Below, piece by piece: positions 4,769-11,043 of a stretch of DNA of 11,043 nucleotides. A program made the translations under genes and the position numbers. Numbering within the stretch: position 1 is the stretch's first letter; each line of letters starts with the position of its first letter. This stretch comes from an uncultured bacterium (lineage in GTDB: Bacteria; CAZSTA01): positions 1 through 11,043 of the forward strand of contig CAZSTA010000119.1 of assembly GCA_964609495.1 (NCBI GenBank). Direction: 5' to 3'. The notes beneath the pieces are model-generated. The model did not search any database. It was not told the DNA's origin and saw only the letters and a list, made by a program, of their open reading frames with translations.

Positions 4769-7201
4769 ATGATCAATGATTTTGGAGGCAGTTCCTCCCT
4801 TGCTAGACGTTTCATAGGCGATATTTACAATATACTTGTTAATATCTCCGCTCCCGAGATAGAAGTTGCCTATCAGAGATGGAAGAGATCTAGTGAGAGG
4901 ATATATGGGAGTAAACTCGATGTTCTTCAAACCTTGAGTGAAGATTATATTCCCGATGAGAAGCCACTCGACTTCAGCTTTTTGCTCTTCGCTCTTCAAA
5001 CTTACTATGCGATCCTGCTCAAATTCATCGCGGTTGACATAGCCTCTCATATCTACAACGAGCCTTCTTTGAGTTATCATCATAATGATGATCACTCAAC
5101 TTGGACAGATGAGCTATTATCCCTGACCGATAGCGAATTGAGGGACGATCTGCTATCTCTGGAGGAAGAAGGTTTACTTAATCAGCTAGGCATAGTTCAA
5201 GATCCTGAAGAGCGACTATTCTCTTGGTATCTGAAGAATAATTACGGTAATGAGCTATGCGATAATTTGAGAGAGGTGATAGCAAAGCTCGGAGAGTATG
5301 AATTAGTCCCTTTAATAGATAATCCAAGGGATCTCTTAAAGGGATTATATCACGATCTTTTTCCTCGCTCTATCCGTCATAAGCTAGGAGAATATTATAC
5401 CCCCGATTGGCTAGCCGAATTAGCTCTGAACGAATTGGAGTATGATGGCGATCCTCATAAACGAATATTAGACCCAGCGGCGGGATCGGGGACGTTTGTA
5501 ATTGCCTCTATTCTGAGAGCGAAGGATTACGCCGAGAGAGAAGGGATAGCTCAAGAGGAAGCTCTAAATCTCATATTAGAAAATATAGTCTGTTTCGATC
5601 TCAATCCTCTAGCAGTATTGATGAGTCGAGTAAATTATCTTCTCGCTTTAGGGCGAGAATTATTTTTATTAGGGAGAAAAATTGAAATACCGGTTTATCT
5701 ATGTGATCCCATATTATCTTCTCACTTTAAGAGAGAAGCTAATTCCTTCGCCGAAGTTGACTCCGAGTCATTCGATTACATAGCAGGAAATCCTCCCTGG
5801 GTGAATTGGGAAGATCTCCCCGATGATTACAAGAGATCGACCAAAGAGATATGGGATAAATATGGTATATTCTCTCATAGCGGACTTAGGGCTAGATTAG
5901 GAGGCTCTAAAGATGATATAGCGATACTTATGACCTATGTAGCGATAGAGCGTTATTTGAAGAGGAAGGGAAAACTTGGCTTCGTAATAACTCGCTCCTT
6001 ATTTAAGACGAAAGGTGGAGGAGAAGGATTCAGAAAGTTCAAGATAACGGATAAAACCCCCATAAGAGTTATTAAGGTGGATGATTTGAGCGAGCTTAAA
6101 CCTTTCGAGGGGGCAAATAACAGGGTCGCTCTGTTTATATGTAGCAAGGGAGAAGCCACTCGATATCCCGTCCCCTATACTTTATGGAGGAGAAGAGATG
6201 GGATATCTATAGATCCTTCATATTCTCTCGAAGAAGTTATCGGACTAACGGATAGAGTGAAACTTGAAGCAAAACCGGTGGATGATTATACTTCACCTTG
6301 GATCACAACTAAGAGTAGTTTTTTTGATCTATTAGAGAGGATGGGAGGAAAGACCGAATATAGAGCTAGAGAAGGGGTAAATACTGGGGGAGCGAATGGG
6401 GTATATTGGATCGAGATCGTGGATGGAGATGATCGATTACTCGTAGAAAATCTCGATCATATAGGGAGGAAGAAGATCCAGAAGTATCGAGATAGGGTAG
6501 AGAAAGATCTTGTCTATCCCCTTCTCCGAGGAAGGAATATCTCTCGCTGGAGGTCGAGTTATTCCTGTTATATAATTATCCCTTGTGATCCTGACGAACC
6601 AAAATTAAGGTTCGCTTCCGCTGAGATGAGCCTGAGATTTCCCAGGACTTACTCGTATCTTTCCCACTTTAAAGATATATTGCTATCGAGAAAATCTAGC
6701 TCTATCCCGAAAAATCCCTTCTATTCTCTTTTCGGGCTTGGTCCCTATACTTTCTCTCCCTATAAGGTTGTTTGGAGGGCTTTATACAAGGAGATTGCAG
6801 CGGTAGTAGTATCAAAGAGGGAGGATCGATTTCTATCTGCCAGATATATTATCCCCGAGCATAATGTTATGTTCATCCCTCTTTGGAATGAGGATGAAGC
6901 CCATTATCTCTGTGCGATATTGAACTCATCCTTAGTTAATTTTGCTATGCGGAGTTATGCCCCTCTGTTCTATTCGACTCACCTCCTCTCCTATCTAAGG
7001 ATACCTAAATATGATCCTGAACTTCGTCTTCATCGAGAGTTATCCTCTCTTTCCTCGAAAGCTCACCTCAACTCCGAGGAAGACGATGAGTTAAGGCATA
7101 TACAAGAGGAATTAGATCTTGTGATATGTAAGCTGTGGAATGTGAAAAAGGGAGAGTTATCCGAAGTTAAGGAGTATCTAAAAGAAATGGTGATTAACTA
7201 G
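4769..7201 (+). CDS. Large (810 aa) gamma-class N6-adenine DNA methyltransferase, Eco57I/MmeI/PglX-like core, with an N-terminal ~200-aa domain of unknown function and a C-terminal putative target-recognition region
   Basis: LGEYYTPDWLAELAL (motif X-like), ILDPAAGSGTFVIA (motif I, SAM binding), and AGNPPWVNWEDL (motif IV NPPW), in the X-I-IV order of gamma-class amino-MTases. About 390 aa follow the catalytic core. The ATG at 4769 sits 2 nt after the pcrA stop, so translation is coupled and there is no separate SD. Confidence 0.8.
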   Translation: MINDFGGSSSLARRFIGDIYNILVNISAPEIEVAYQRWKRSSERIYGSKLDVLQTLSEDYIPDEKPLDFSFLLFALQTYYAILLKFIAVDIASHIYNEPSLSYHHNDDHSTWTDELLSLTDSELRDDLLSLEEEGLLNQLGIVQDPEERLFSWYLKNNYGNELCDNLREVIAKLGEYELVPLIDNPRDLLKGLYHDLFPRSIRHKLGEYYTPDWLAELALNELEYDGDPHKRILDPAAGSGTFVIASILRAKDYAEREGIAQEEALNLILENIVCFDLNPLAVLMSRVNYLLALGRELFLLGRKIEIPVYLCDPILSSHFKREANSFAEVDSESFDYIAGNPPWVNWEDLPDDYKRSTKEIWDKYGIFSHSGLRARLGGSKDDIAILMTYVAIERYLKRKGKLGFVITRSLFKTKGGGEGFRKFKITDKTPIRVIKVDDLSELKPFEGANNRVALFICSKGEATRYPVPYTLWRRRDGISIDPSYSLEEVIGLTDRVKLEAKPVDDYTSPWITTKSSFFDLLERMGGKTEYRAREGVNTGGANGVYWIEIVDGDDRLLVENLDHIGRKKIQKYRDRVEKDLVYPLLRGRNISRWRSSYSCYIIIPCDPDEPKLRFASAEMSLRFPRTYSYLSHFKDILLSRKSSSIPKNPFYSLFGLGPYTFSPYKVVWRALYKEIAAVVVSKREDRFLSARYIIPEHNVMFIPLWNEDEAHYLCAILNSSLVNFAMRSYAPLFYSTHLLSYLRIPKYDPELRLHRELSSLSSKAHLNSEEDDELRHIQEELDLVICKLWNVKKGELSEVKEYLKEMVIN

Positions 7202-7754: not shown

Positions 7755-8561
7755 TTATCCTCCTCCTGATAATGCTCCTTTAACTCTTTCTGCTACTATC
7801 CTCGCGATCTCATCCTCACTCACTTCTTGAGACTTCTCCCCCGCGGCAGAATCGCTTATCGCACAAACCTCCCCTCCACATAGTCCGCAGGTCTCACAAC
7901 TAAAATTCGGTCCCTCTATACCTAATTCCTCTCTGATCTCCATAAGCCTGTCCACTTGCTCCTTAGTGAGCGTCCTCACTCCTCCTAGCTGTTTGGCTAC
8001 CAAGCTTATATGAGCGAAATGTTCTAAAGTCTCCATTCGATAGTAGGCTTTATAAACATCGGTCCCGATCGTCATCGCTCCATGATTAGCTAGCAGAAAA
8101 GCATCGGATTTCTTAATATATTCCATAATGGTATCAGGTAGCTCCTCGGTAGAGGGAGTTCCATAAGGGGCTAAGGGGACCGAACCTATAGTTATGACTA
8201 CTTCTGGCAACACACATTGAGCTAGGGGAAGTCCAGCTACCGCGAAACCAGTAGCGATCGGGGGATGAGCATGCACTACCGACTTAATATCCGGTCTAGT
8301 CTTATATACTCGAATGTGAAGTTTTACCTCTGAGGACGGTCTTCGATCTTCTGCTCCCGCAATTTTATTACCATCCATATCAACTTTTACTATATCCCCG
8401 ACCTCCAAGTAGCCCTTGGACATTCCCGTGGGAGTAGTCAATATCTCATTCTCGCTTATCCTGATACTCACATTTCCATCATTAGAGGCCACATAACCCT
8501 TTCCGTATATCCTATGGCACACCTCTACAATATCTTCTTTCAAAACCCATTCATTCGCCAT
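7755..8561 (-). CDS. Class II aldolase/adducin-family protein (L-fuculose/rhamnulose-phosphate-aldolase-like) with a C-terminal Cys-cluster and an encapsulation-peptide-like helix
   Basis: GNVSIR, TPTG, PSSE (metal-ligand Glu), HAHP and ANHG motifs of the FucA/AraD class II aldolase fold occupy residues 1-215. A 53-aa extension follows, carrying C222-x2-C225-x2-C228-x4-C233 and the amphipathic helix DEIARIVAERVKGAL. A strong SD (AAGGAGAGG) precedes the ATG. Confidence 0.85.
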   Translation of the reverse strand: MANEWVLKEDIVEVCHRIYGKGYVASNDGNVSIRISENEILTTPTGMSKGYLEVGDIVKVDMDGNKIAGAEDRRPSSEVKLHIRVYKTRPDIKSVVHAHPPIATGFAVAGLPLAQCVLPEVVITIGSVPLAPYGTPSTEELPDTIMEYIKKSDAFLLANHGAMTIGTDVYKAYYRMETLEHFAHISLVAKQLGGVRTLTKEQVDRLMEIREELGIEGPNFSCETCGLCGGEVCAISDSAAGEKSQEVSEDEIARIVAERVKGALSGGG

Positions 8562-8636
8562 ATTACCTCTCCTTTTATTCTAGCTGGAAAGTTGAAATCG
8601 AAAAGAGAGAAATTCCGCTCCTTCACTTTCCACCCT

Positions 8637-8927
8637 CTATTTTCTAAATACGTATTCTCCGTCAACTTCCCAATAATCTATGATTCCCATAATCAAAGTC
8701 CGAATAGGAGCCCTTTCTAAACCGAAAACTTCCCTAGCAACTCCGGGACCGCTTCCAGCTAAAACTATATCTCCCTCACCTGCTCCCACATAGTCAACTG
8801 CCACCATCGGAGACCCTTTTGGATTTCCCTCTATATCGAGCGGTTGAACGATCATTATCTTCTTATTCTGATAAGCCTCATGTTTAAGGGTTGATACTAT
8901 ATTTCCCACTACTTTGCCGATGAACAA
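8637..8927 (-). CDS. BMC vertex (pentamer) protein, EutN/PduN/CcmL family (BMC-P), paralog 1
   Basis: MFIGKVVGNIVSTLKH...IMIVQPLDIEGNPKGSPMVAVDYVGAGEGDIVLAGSGPGVAR...MGIIDYWEVDGEYVFRK follows the EutN/CcmL consensus (ViGxvvaT, D.vGAG.G..VL...GS.AR, GIvD) and is ~96 aa. It apparently uses a TTG start. Confidence 0.85.
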   Translation of the reverse strand: MFIGKVVGNIVSTLKHEAYQNKKIMIVQPLDIEGNPKGSPMVAVDYVGAGEGDIVLAGSGPGVAREVFGLERAPIRTLIMGIIDYWEVDGEYVFRK

Positions 8928-8968
8928 AGGAGCTCACTTCCCTATTTATAAAAACTTCAAATCAGTAA

Positions 8969-9265
8969 TTACTGTTTCCCACTTTCAACTTCTGAATCGA
9001 TACTATGAACAGAATCTACTATACCAACTATCGCGGCATCTACTGGAGTGAAAACATCATCGAAAGCCTGAGTAGCATCACGACTAGTAACAAAGAACAC
9101 AGTATCACCGTATCCAGCTAGAGCTACCGCATCGGCAGCGATCAAAGGCCTGCCTGATTTTTCTAGGTTTTGATCCAGGGGCTGAACGATCAACAGGCGA
9201 AATCCCTTTAAGCTCTCCTGTTTTCTAGTTGCTACTATTGTCCCAATTACCTTTCCTAACTTCAT
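8969..9265 (-). CDS. BMC vertex (pentamer) protein, EutN/PduN/CcmL family (BMC-P), paralog 2
   Basis: MKLGKVIGTIVATRKQESLKGFRLLIVQPLD...AADAVALAGYGDTVFFVTSRDATQ...PVDAAIVGIVDSV has the same fold signature and is 98 aa. An SD (AGAGGA) precedes the ATG. Confidence 0.82.
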   Translation of the reverse strand: MKLGKVIGTIVATRKQESLKGFRLLIVQPLDQNLEKSGRPLIAADAVALAGYGDTVFFVTSRDATQAFDDVFTPVDAAIVGIVDSVHSIDSEVESGKQ

Positions 9266-9320
9266 ACCCTATCCTCTTTTAGAAAAAAGATAAACCATTT
9301 TCCAATTTATGCTTTCCCGA

Positions 9321-9875
9321 TCACAATACTTTCGCGATTAAGCTCGGATTTGGAGAAGGGATAACAACGCTATCTAAAATCATTCCCCTATCAGTGATCT
9401 CTGATACGCCAGCCTGGATTCCAGCTCTAACATCAGCTACAGTTCCAGTTAAAACTAGGAAGGATTTGCCACCTAAACCTTTCGCTAACCTGATCTCGAT
9501 CAGAGATACATTAGCCGCTTTTGCGGCTGCGTCACCGGCTATTATAGTTGAGGCTACCGAGAAGGTCTCTATTATCCCCAAAGCCTCGACCTCCTCGATG
9601 ATAGTCGTTCCCACGATCGCGGGGAAGATCTGAGGATGAACATTAGGGATTATCAGATCATCCACAACCGTTTCTGCTCCTACCCTCTGCCCTGTCCTAA
9701 CGGAGGTCTCTACTGCGGCTATCTCTCCCCCTATTAGAACAATGTATTTACCAGGACAGACCGGAGCCGCCTCTATCAGATCAACTGTAGCCGCATCCAG
9801 CATCTCATCACAAGCCATCATTCCCCTAGCTATGCTATTGAATTCTACAAGTCCAATCGCTGAATGTATTGCCAT
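9321..9875 (-). CDS. pduT: Tandem-BMC-domain shell protein, PduT-like (BMC-T with putative Fe-S-binding cysteine)
   Basis: At 184 aa it is the same length as PduT. It carries two BMC (pfam00936-like) repeats, AIGLVEFNSIARGM...VDLI and ALGIIETFSVASTIIAGDAAAKAANVSLIEI...GGKSF. The PduT pore cysteine context (ICPGK) is conserved as PVCPGK, and there is a C-terminal SVVIPSP as in PduT. Confidence 0.82.
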   Translation of the reverse strand: MAIHSAIGLVEFNSIARGMMACDEMLDAATVDLIEAAPVCPGKYIVLIGGEIAAVETSVRTGQRVGAETVVDDLIIPNVHPQIFPAIVGTTIIEEVEALGIIETFSVASTIIAGDAAAKAANVSLIEIRLAKGLGGKSFLVLTGTVADVRAGIQAGVSEITDRGMILDSVVIPSPNPSLIAKVL

Positions 9876-9917
9876 TTTATCTCTCCAAATATTGATTGAT
9901 AATTCTTACTTAAACAA

Positions 9918-10781
9918 TTAGCCCTTTAGTCCGGTCAAAGTTATCCCTTTGATGAAATACTTCTGCATAGATACAAACAAAATTATAACTGGAAGAGAGC
10001 ATACTAGAGTAGCCGCCATAAGAAGATTAGTCTTAGTTATGCCGAATTGATTACTATAGAGAGCCAATCCTAGAGGTACTGTTCTTTTACTTAAAGTGTC
10101 AATCACCACTAGAGGCCACATAAAGCTATCCCAGTTCGCCATAAAGGTAAAGATAGATAGAGTAGCTAGAGGGGGCTTACAAAGTGGTAATATAATCCGC
10201 CAGTATATCCCAAATTCGGGGCAACCATCTATCCTTGCGGCATCGATTAAATCTGTAGGGATAGTCTGAATGAATTGCCTCATCAAAAATATGCCAAAGG
10301 CACTTATCAATCCGGGGATGATCAAAGCCGCGAGGTTATCTATTAGATTGAGATATTTCATCATAAAATAGAGGGGAATCATAGTAACTTGAAAGGGGAT
10401 CATCATTGTTGAGAGAATTAGAATAAATAGGATATCACGTCCTTTGAAATTAAATTTGGCGAAGGCATATCCAGTTAAGGAACTGAAGAAGAGAACGCTG
10501 AGGGTCACAGATGTGCCCTGGATTATGCTATTGAGAAAGAAACGGGCAAAGGGTGCATAAGATAACGCTTCAGGAAAGTTCTGTAAAGTAGGCTGGTTAG
10601 GTATCCAAGTAGGAGGATAGGCGATAGTCTCAGGGCCGGGTTTAAAGGCGGTCGATACCATCCACAGGAAAGGACCAGCCATAACTATCGTGAAGAGAGC
10701 AACGATTATATACAAAACAACTTGCCCTGTCCAATATAAAGTTCGAACCTTTCTAACGGATATATCGGATACATCATTCAT
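9918..10781 (-). CDS. Carbohydrate ABC transporter permease (MalG/UgpE-like)
   Basis: Polytopic membrane protein with the EAA-type loop ..DAARIDGCPEFGIYWRIILPL.. and the overall MalG/UgpE topology (287 aa). Confidence 0.85.
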   Translation of the reverse strand: MNDVSDISVRKVRTLYWTGQVVLYIIVALFTIVMAGPFLWMVSTAFKPGPETIAYPPTWIPNQPTLQNFPEALSYAPFARFFLNSIIQGTSVTLSVLFFSSLTGYAFAKFNFKGRDILFILILSTMMIPFQVTMIPLYFMMKYLNLIDNLAALIIPGLISAFGIFLMRQFIQTIPTDLIDAARIDGCPEFGIYWRIILPLCKPPLATLSIFTFMANWDSFMWPLVVIDTLSKRTVPLGLALYSNQFGITKTNLLMAATLVCSLPVIILFVSMQKYFIKGITLTGLKG

Positions 10782-10791
10782 CCTACTACTC

Positions 10792-11043
10792 CTAAAACTC
10801 TATGCCTCGACCGAAATACTTGATCTGTAATATAGTTAAAAAGAGGACAATACCAAAGAGAACGAAAGCCATAGAACAAGCTAATCCCATCCGGTAAAAG
10901 CGAAAAGCGGATTCGTATATATATTGGACTAGCACTCTAGTAGCATTACCTGGGCCACCGTTAGTCATAATGAAGATCTGAGTGAAGACTTGAAAAGAGC
11001 CAATTACCCCGGTTACCATTACGAACAGAATCGGCGTTGGACG
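10792..11043 (-). CDS. Carbohydrate ABC transporter permease (MalF/UgpA-like), C-terminal fragment (the 5' end lies beyond the window)
   Basis: Reverse-strand translation is open to the window edge (..RPTPILFVMVTGVIGSFQVFTQIFIMTNGGPGNATRVLVQYIYESAFRF...). The GGP..T..L..YIY motif is typical of the C-terminus of MalF/UgpA permeases. The stop is 11 nt before the next permease start. Confidence 0.8.
   Translation of the reverse strand, partial: RPTPILFVMVTGVIGSFQVFTQIFIMTNGGPGNATRVLVQYIYESAFRFYRMGLACSMAFVLFGIVLFLTILQIKYFGRGIEF

Follow-up and report, generated by a model that had tools for sequence, protein, structure and literature searches.

Which organelle is served by a short string of genes for sugar permeases, bacterial microcompartment (BMC) shell proteins and a single aldolase, has such an organelle been described before, and where is the rest of it encoded? 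These questions are raised by one end of contig CAZSTA010000119.1 (assembly GCA_964609495.1, an uncultured bacterium), whose whole public record of 11,043 bases was analysed here (hereafter “the window”). Six open reading frames (ORFs), all on the minus strand and co-directional, run from position 11043 to 7755 with intergenic gaps of 10–75 bases, and encode, in this order, two CUT1-family ATP-binding cassette (ABC) permeases, a tandem-domain shell trimer protein of PduT type (BMC-T), two shell pentamer proteins (BMC-P, here P1 and P2) and a class II aldolase (Table 1). In our view the region is likely to be part of a locus, probably a satellite one, for an aldehyde-oxidising metabolosome with the aldolase as its signature enzyme. 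Its content is a catalogued module, and thus an instance of an already catalogued organelle family rather than a new kind.

The gene identities are those given in a preliminary description made from the sequence alone, and they stand: five of the six ORFs exceed their Pfam gathering scores by wide margins, the permease fragment is recognised by NCBIfam models, and hidden Markov model (HMM) searches with pfam00936, pfam03319 and pfam00596 all score above cutoff, so the BMC-domain assignments hold. Domain annotation of the window genes found no Pdu, Eut or glycyl-radical enzymes, as that description had also stated. Neither shell hexamers (BMC-H) nor an aldehyde dehydrogenase (AldDH), a phosphotransacylase (PTAC) or a third BMC-P was found within the 11-kb window, including the 3.3-kb region of the block.

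A recurrent four-gene block

The block of BMC-T, P1, P2 and aldolase makes up the distal half of an operon found repeatedly in other genomes. This half is conserved, and in the window the break falls exactly between PduS and BMC-T. Among 172 comparison loci annotated by a local BLAST pipeline, the nearest relatives of the BMC-T (59–62% identity; L009, L010, L011, L175 and L176) are all found either in a full operon or in a stand-alone block. The full operon (L011, L175, L176, L009), hosted by Eisenbacteria, Planctomycetota and other metagenome-assembled genomes (MAGs), reads PTAC, BMC-H, BMC-H, BMC-P0, AldDH, PduS, BMC-T, BMC-P1, BMC-P2, aldolase. The order of its last four genes is fixed in at least 12 independent loci (L009/L012, L010, L011, L026, L029, L040, L131, L142, L158, L166 and L176). 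As a stand-alone unit, the block follows groES/groEL in L010 and HD-domain, histidine-kinase/GGDEF or response-regulator genes in L142, L162 and L166, and at four independent loci it is present without any core genes inside the available flanks. The unusual gene order noted in the preliminary description is therefore that of a fixed module, and the adjacency of two specialised BMC-P genes is the catalogued norm.

PduS lies immediately upstream of BMC-T in about 127 of the 154 comparison cases with enough upstream sequence. PduT-type trimers with an intact pore cysteine but no preceding PduS occur in the window and in L010, L142, L162 and L166, and the break between PduS and BMC-T recurs independently across several lineages. 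At L162:10001-12186, BMC-T, P1 and P2 are followed, in the usual position of the aldolase, by a gene of the XerC/phage-integrase family, which hints at recombination at the module boundary.

The two pentamer genes carry the same signal of a fixed arrangement. P1 and P2 share 37% identity and are old paralogues, and their classes are specific to position: the first BMC-P after BMC-T is of P1 type in 31 of 32 cases and the second of P2 type in 22 of 25, while those beside AldDH/PduS are of P0 type in 65 of 67. The nearest neighbours of the window P1 are the P1 genes of L026, L040, L011 and L029. Given this position specificity, two of the three BMC-P of a triplet are encoded in the window. According to the 2021 catalogue of BMC loci (Sutter et al.), the specialised (grey and orange) BMC-P pair is always adjacent, a rule stated for the SPU and related types; the function of this pair is still unknown according to the literature. 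The protein MSM0273, used as a proxy for the grey clade in the Protein Data Bank (PDB), matches P2 weakly (24 bits) and does not match P1.

The aldolase leads to a second, related set of loci. Its relatives, at no more than 58% identity, are encoded at the start of complete metabolosome operons, found in MAGs of Firmicutes and in Moorella, in which the aldolase is accompanied by three BMC-H, PTAC, BMC-P, AldDH, a PduS-like protein, BMC-T and acetate kinase, with DeoR regulators, sugar ABC transporters and FGGY kinases nearby. The BMC loci of all the nearest aldolase relatives encode AldDH, PTAC and PduS/PduT but lack an intact glycyl-radical enzyme, which bears out the earlier placement of the window among aldolase-class metabolosomes.

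Homologous class II aldolases are shared by the PVM, PVM-like, GRM5, MIC and SPU-like loci (Axen et al. 2014). In the 2021 catalogue, MIC4 combines AldDH bearing an N-terminal encapsulation peptide (EP), PTAC, a pfam00596 aldolase, acetate kinase, a BMC-P triplet, PduS and a PduT with a pore cysteine, while MUF3, from Clostridia, has an aldolase with a C-terminal EP, three BMC-H, a single BMC-P as well as a central PduS/PduT; its tree files place Moorella humiferrea (the species of L006) in MUF3, Melioribacter and KSB1 4484_87 in MIC4, and Latescibacteria 4484_107 in FRAG2. By composition, the operon that contains the window block is closest to MIC4 and related to PVM, PVM-like and MUF3. With MIC4 the window shares the pfam00596 aldolase, the PduT-type BMC-T with its pore cysteine and the two adjacent specialised BMC-P; in keeping with the description of that type, AldDH, PTAC and PduS are encoded in the operons of its nearest shell-protein relatives. 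It differs in having the distal four genes only: a CUT1 permease pair occupies the usual place of PduS, which is missing from the window along with AldDH, PTAC, acetate kinase, BMC-H and a third BMC-P, and the host is Bacillota-like and deep-branching. The operons of relatives do have AldDH, PTAC, acetate kinase and BMC-H.

The window aldolase is about equally close to those of MUF3 (e.g. Moorella humiferrea), which are its closest relatives (54–58% identity) and share the Cys-rich linker, the C-terminal helix and an association with PduS/PduT; the Bacillota affinity of the host is common to both. In MUF3, however, the aldolase comes first, BMC-P is single and PduS/PduT is central, whereas in the window the aldolase comes last and follows two BMC-P. 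PVM loci (Planctomycetes/Verrucomicrobia, fucose/rhamnose) likewise have a class II signature aldolase with a C-terminal EP (PvmN) and three BMC-P paralogues, of which PvmK and PvmM form a specialised pair to which the window pair is likened by description; their trimers belong to catalogue class T_pvm, unlike the PduT-type trimer of the window, and the taxon differs.

The catalogue defines satellites as shell genes, with or without enzymes, that are located apart from the main locus bearing BMC-H and BMC-P, and reports, for HO type I and MIC3, satellites in which BMC-P genes accompany a pfam00596 aldolase; it also lists ACI and PVM-like loci, and FRAG types with scattered shell genes. In the satellites of HO type I, MIC3 and FRAG2, specialised BMC-P and aldolase are encoded together, as in the window, and away from the main locus, the FRAG2 example (L172/L173, Latescibacteria 4484_107) being a single BMC-P and an aldolase alone beside ffh, rpsP, rimM and trmD. 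The window block differs in adding a PduT-type BMC-T and in being joined to transporter genes, and its aldolase has the linker and helix, while only about one third of HO aldolases have an EP-like extension. With such components already listed for MIC4, MUF3, PVM-like, ACI, MIC3 and HO type I satellites, the suggestion of an under-described locus type has to be given up.

Two further types can be set aside, since neither the window nor the nearest operons have their signature enzymes. For SPU, DERA (pfam01791) and RpiB (pfam02502) are absent from the window and not listed in L009, L011 and L175. For GRM5, the glycyl radical enzyme and its activase are absent from the window and no intact copy is present in the related loci. 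Short PFL-like fragments (glycyl-radical enzyme family) on the opposite strand were seen beside the DeoR-aldolase start of MUF3-like loci (L003:8208-8471, L004:8161-8859 and L005:6877-7452), which fits a suggestion from 2014 that some aldolase loci are what is left of GRM5-type loci.

The host is, judging from its PcrA sequence (at most 55–58% identity to known sequences, mostly from Bacillota such as Thermincola, Phosphitispora and heliobacteria), a sparsely sampled, deep-branching, Bacillota-like lineage. The preliminary description had regarded a low G+C content as out of place, on the assumption that PVM-like loci come mostly from Planctomycetes and Verrucomicrobia. This does not hold: most descriptions of PVM-like loci come from Firmicutes and other phyla (diverse Firmicutes, Solibacter and Melioribacter in Axen et al. 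2014), and low G+C is no anomaly, Firmicutes being known hosts of PVM-like, MUF3 and MIC4 loci. The G+C fraction is even along the window (0.40–0.45). Near-identical copies of the block were found in two other metagenome samples, and exact-protein look-ups gave matching contigs of 1.4–1.5 kb. The matches listed for the shell and aldolase proteins leave a gap from 62% to 95% identity, and the metagenome scan gave no relative above 58% identity.

The aldolase, the shell trimer and the permeases

The catalytic residues of the aldolase are intact. E78, H97, H99 and H160 align with E73, H92, H94 and H155 of E. coli FucA, and this catalytic glutamate and the three Zn-binding histidines are invariant in 45 family members. 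At 268 residues, the protein is ~55 longer than FucA (215 residues). An AlphaFold2 model (mean predicted local distance difference test score, pLDDT, 88.7) has a confident core up to about residue 215, followed by a linker of ~33 residues with pLDDT of ~46–56, disordered at 223–245, and by a helix at 249–265. The EP-like tail proposed in the preliminary description is thus real. Its architecture lies within the published ranges for EPs, which in BMC aldolases consist of a linker of 23–81 residues and a helix of ~17 residues according to a review of these peptides, and the extension, of a kind absent from non-BMC aldolases, is missing from FucA. The helix is composed of 31% isoleucine, leucine and valine and 44% charged or polar residues, with zero proline or cysteine, against published values for aldolase EPs of 34% and 38%, respectively. 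On the basis of this model, we regard the helix as encapsulation-peptide-like and as a putative targeting element.

The linker begins with a cluster of cysteines that is conserved across the family. At least one linker cysteine is present in 115 of 115 full-length homologues and at least three in 80 of 115; the first sits at a fixed offset in 112 of 115, and a CxxCxxC motif occurs in 47 of 120. Across the aldolase family, the cysteine frequency is 7.3% in the linker and 1.0% in the domain. The EP review describes the linker as being without sequence conservation, although its Table 2 gives aldolase linkers the highest cysteine content, and no discussion of the motif was found in the literature. 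A role of the cluster as a metal site is possible.

The BMC-T scored 124.5 bits against the PduT equivalog model TIGR02526, below the cutoff of 250.3, and is therefore described as PduT-type and not as an orthologue of the Pdu/Eut protein. Its PDB matches are led by 3NWG (206 bits), with the PduT structures 3PAC/3N79 at 147–155 bits. The window sequence PVCPGKY aligns with TICPGKF of PduT (3PAC), a motif whose cysteine, in PduT, binds a [4Fe-4S] cluster at the pore of the trimer. The corresponding Cys40 (motif C-P-G-K-[YF], domain 1) is invariant among 21 homologues.

The 83-residue permease fragment has no Pfam match and weakly matches the C-terminal ends of the NCBIfam UgpA (positions 217–292 of 295, 27.6 bits) and MalF (18.2 bits) models, both far under cutoff; the earlier label “MalF-like” for this gene therefore stands at family level, and the specific assignment falls. 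The best models for the complete permease are UgpE (137 of 297 bits) and GlcU (136 of 340 bits), and since both scores are below cutoff the transported substrate is not assignable. The complete permease begins 10 bases past the stop codon of the upstream permease. At its junction with BMC-T (9876–9917), neither a scan nor reading of the sequence found a terminator-like site, and the promoter scan gave a single weak match (9/12, at 9902–9874) with site counts not above those of shuffles; promoter and terminator scans stayed at background level. The only two particular features of the window block are the permease 42 bases upstream and the PduT without its usual PduS neighbour.

Table 1 Features of the BMC-associated region of the window, in order of transcription.
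Feature	Position	Strand	Evidence
CUT1-family ABC permease, MalF/UgpA-like, C-terminal 83 residues, cut by contig end	10792..11043	-	partial NCBIfam matches
CUT1-family ABC permease, MalG/UgpE/GlcU-like, complete, 287 aa	9918..10781	-	PF00528, 80 bits
AT-rich junction, 42 bases, permease stop to BMC-T start, with GGAGAG ribosome-binding site	9876..9917	-	sequence reading
PduT-type tandem-domain BMC-T, 184 aa, pore Cys40	9321..9875	-	PF00936 twice in one chain, 148 bits total, above gathering score
BMC-P paralogue P1, first after BMC-T, 98 aa	8969..9265	-	PF03319, 95.2 bits (cutoff 25)
BMC-P paralogue P2, second after BMC-T, 96 aa, TTG start	8637..8927	-	PF03319, 95.8 bits (cutoff 25)
Class II aldolase, Zn-dependent, FucA-type fold, 268 aa, C-terminal extension	7755..8561	-	PF00596, 169 bits (cutoff 22)
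Cys cluster C222-x2-C225-x2-C228-x4-C233, start of aldolase linker	7863..7898	-	homologue comparison
Encapsulation-peptide-like C-terminal helix, aldolase residues 249-265	7767..7817	-	AlphaFold2 and composition

Proposed function and the missing core

A working scheme can be drawn from these parts. The importer would take up a sugar, possibly a deoxy-hexose, which cytosolic isomerase and kinase steps would turn into a ketose-1-phosphate. The C-terminal helix would carry the aldolase into the organelle, where the enzyme would split the ketose-1-phosphate into dihydroxyacetone phosphate and an aldehyde, for instance lactaldehyde. The products of AldDH and PTAC genes located elsewhere would then convert the aldehyde within the shell to acyl-CoA and further to acyl-phosphate. 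The PduT-type trimer, with a predicted Fe-S cluster at its pore and normally paired with PduS, may transfer electrons across the shell, and P1 and P2, as two specialised members of the BMC-P triplet, would cap the shell vertices together with the third BMC-P.

This scheme requires BMC-H, a third BMC-P, AldDH, PTAC and PduS, and we place these, with moderate confidence, in a distant main locus. Two observations favour such a location: the block is repeatedly detached from its core, and in no locus does a transporter separate PduS from BMC-T; by analogy, the stand-alone copies of the module elsewhere would make a main locus at a distance no less likely than a core just past the window. The alternative, that the region belongs to one contiguous locus whose core lies immediately upstream of the transporter, past position 11043, with the transporter as an insertion in the BMC operon, appears rather unlikely, although it accounts well for the tight spacing and shared direction of all genes from 11043 to 7755 and for the lack of a terminator at the permease/BMC-T junction. 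Related aldolase BMC loci (e.g. L006 from Moorella, and L102) do have transporters and sugar kinases at their flanks, and the catalogue counts membrane transporters as typical ancillary genes. Nevertheless, none of the ~170 comparison loci has a CUT1 permease separating PduS from BMC-T or lying directly upstream of BMC-T, a place that PduS holds in about four of five cases, and the four independent loci in which the block is detached from the core genes within the available flanks argue in the same direction.

It is improbable that the aldolase is not the aldehyde source at all, and acts instead either as an SPU-like accessory, for example by condensing triose phosphates, or as a decarboxylase or epimerase of the class II aldolase fold. 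A class II aldolase with a C-terminal EP, proposed to make fructose-1,6-bisphosphate, does occur in some SPU subtypes, and the best matches of the window protein are not to FucA: its top NCBIfam model is 3-oxo-tetronate 4-phosphate decarboxylase (OxoTetrPhDc, 139 of 250 bits), with 91–120 bits against the FucA models (cutoffs 250–400) and 64 against RhaD (cutoff 170), none of them reached, and its top PDB matches are 6VOP/6VOQ (95–98 bits), with FucA at 71–81 bits. Against this stand the lack of DERA and RpiB in the window and in the operons examined for them above, the invariance of the FucA-type catalytic glutamate and Zn histidines, and the finding that, beside AldDH and PTAC, related loci offer no candidate for the aldehyde source other than the aldolase. 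The idea of an orphan remnant, in which a lost BMC operon has left a free cytosolic aldolase for the imported sugar beside decaying or idle shell genes, would suit the lack of BMC-H, AldDH and PTAC in the available 11 kb, the PduT without a PduS neighbour and the fragmented loci with few or no recognisable enzymes known to the catalogue, but it is very improbable in view of the four intact, full-length ORFs with strong Pfam scores, the retention of the pore cysteine, the aldolase active site and the linker-plus-helix tail, and the near-identical block copies in the two other samples.

Several results count against the reading of the region as a satellite of an aldolase metabolosome. The rest of the organelle lies outside the data, the contig ending at 11043, and a permease is found upstream of BMC-T instead of PduS. 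No NCBIfam equivalog cutoff was reached by the aldolase and its best model is that of a decarboxylase, so that the substrate and even the type of reaction are inferred. A sequence profile built from 112 homologue tails gave the window tail 0.8 bits, a value equalled by 214 of 2000 shuffles, and the hydrophobic moment of the helix (0.52) was reached by 17–20% of shuffles. Genome and metagenome scans returned no relatives above 62% identity among the matches listed, the assignment to MIC4 is one of gene composition rather than of the catalogue's own HMMs, and the co-transcription of the permease genes with the block is putative.

With the region taken as a metabolosome satellite, the hosts of aldolase-type metabolosomes would gain a deep-branching, Bacillota-like uncultured lineage. 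The block of BMC-T, P1, P2 and aldolase moves as a unit that is detachable from the core operon, which supports a modular, mix-and-match evolution of BMCs. The junction with the importer could help to find the substrate of MIC4-like organelles, as the ligand of the transporter would point to the sugar, and the conserved linker cysteines provide a testable lead. More speculatively, and with a probability that we would rate as low, importer, aldolase, two vertex proteins and a redox-pore tile could be expressed together as a “substrate cartridge” that plugs into a generic metabolosome core encoded elsewhere, with the linker cysteine cluster as a metal or Fe-S site that ties cargo loading or activity to the PduT redox pore. 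If this were true, uptake of one sugar would re-equip an existing organelle, and the cysteine site would explain why PduT travels with the aldolase and not with PduS.

Neighbouring genes and other loci

The remainder of the window encodes the C-terminus of alr, a PD-(D/E)XK nuclease, a HIT protein, pcrA, an Eco57I-type methylase and ruvX, and Rfam and tRNA scans of the window gave zero matches.

Among the comparison loci, L174:8671-13352 (a KSB1 MAG) has a stand-alone PduS-PduT pair followed by citrate-lyase genes (an ACP/HpcH_HpaI fusion and CitF), with no further shell genes within 10 kb. Three archaea-labelled MAGs have complete BMC operons (PTAC, H, P0, AldDH, PduS, H, T, P1, P2, AckA) on long contigs, namely L047 (a Hodarchaeota MAG, 143 kb), L055 (Heimdallarchaeota B3_Heim, 93 kb) and L014 (an Undinarchaeota MAG, 134 kb), and P0156 is archaea-labelled as well (a Methanopyri archaeon). 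The operons of the three MAGs could be mis-binned or real transfers; one earlier archaeal case was attributed by the catalogue to mis-binning.

Within the window, a 157-aa ORF at 1634-2107 has a lipoprotein-like signal sequence (LLTTLGC) and no Pfam match. The PD-(D/E)XK nuclease at 824-1612, upstream of the methylase, is Cas4-like. The methylase itself (4769-7201), in which Pfam recognised no nuclease domain, is an Eco57I/N6-methylase-type protein of 810 aa that begins 3 bases past the pcrA stop codon.

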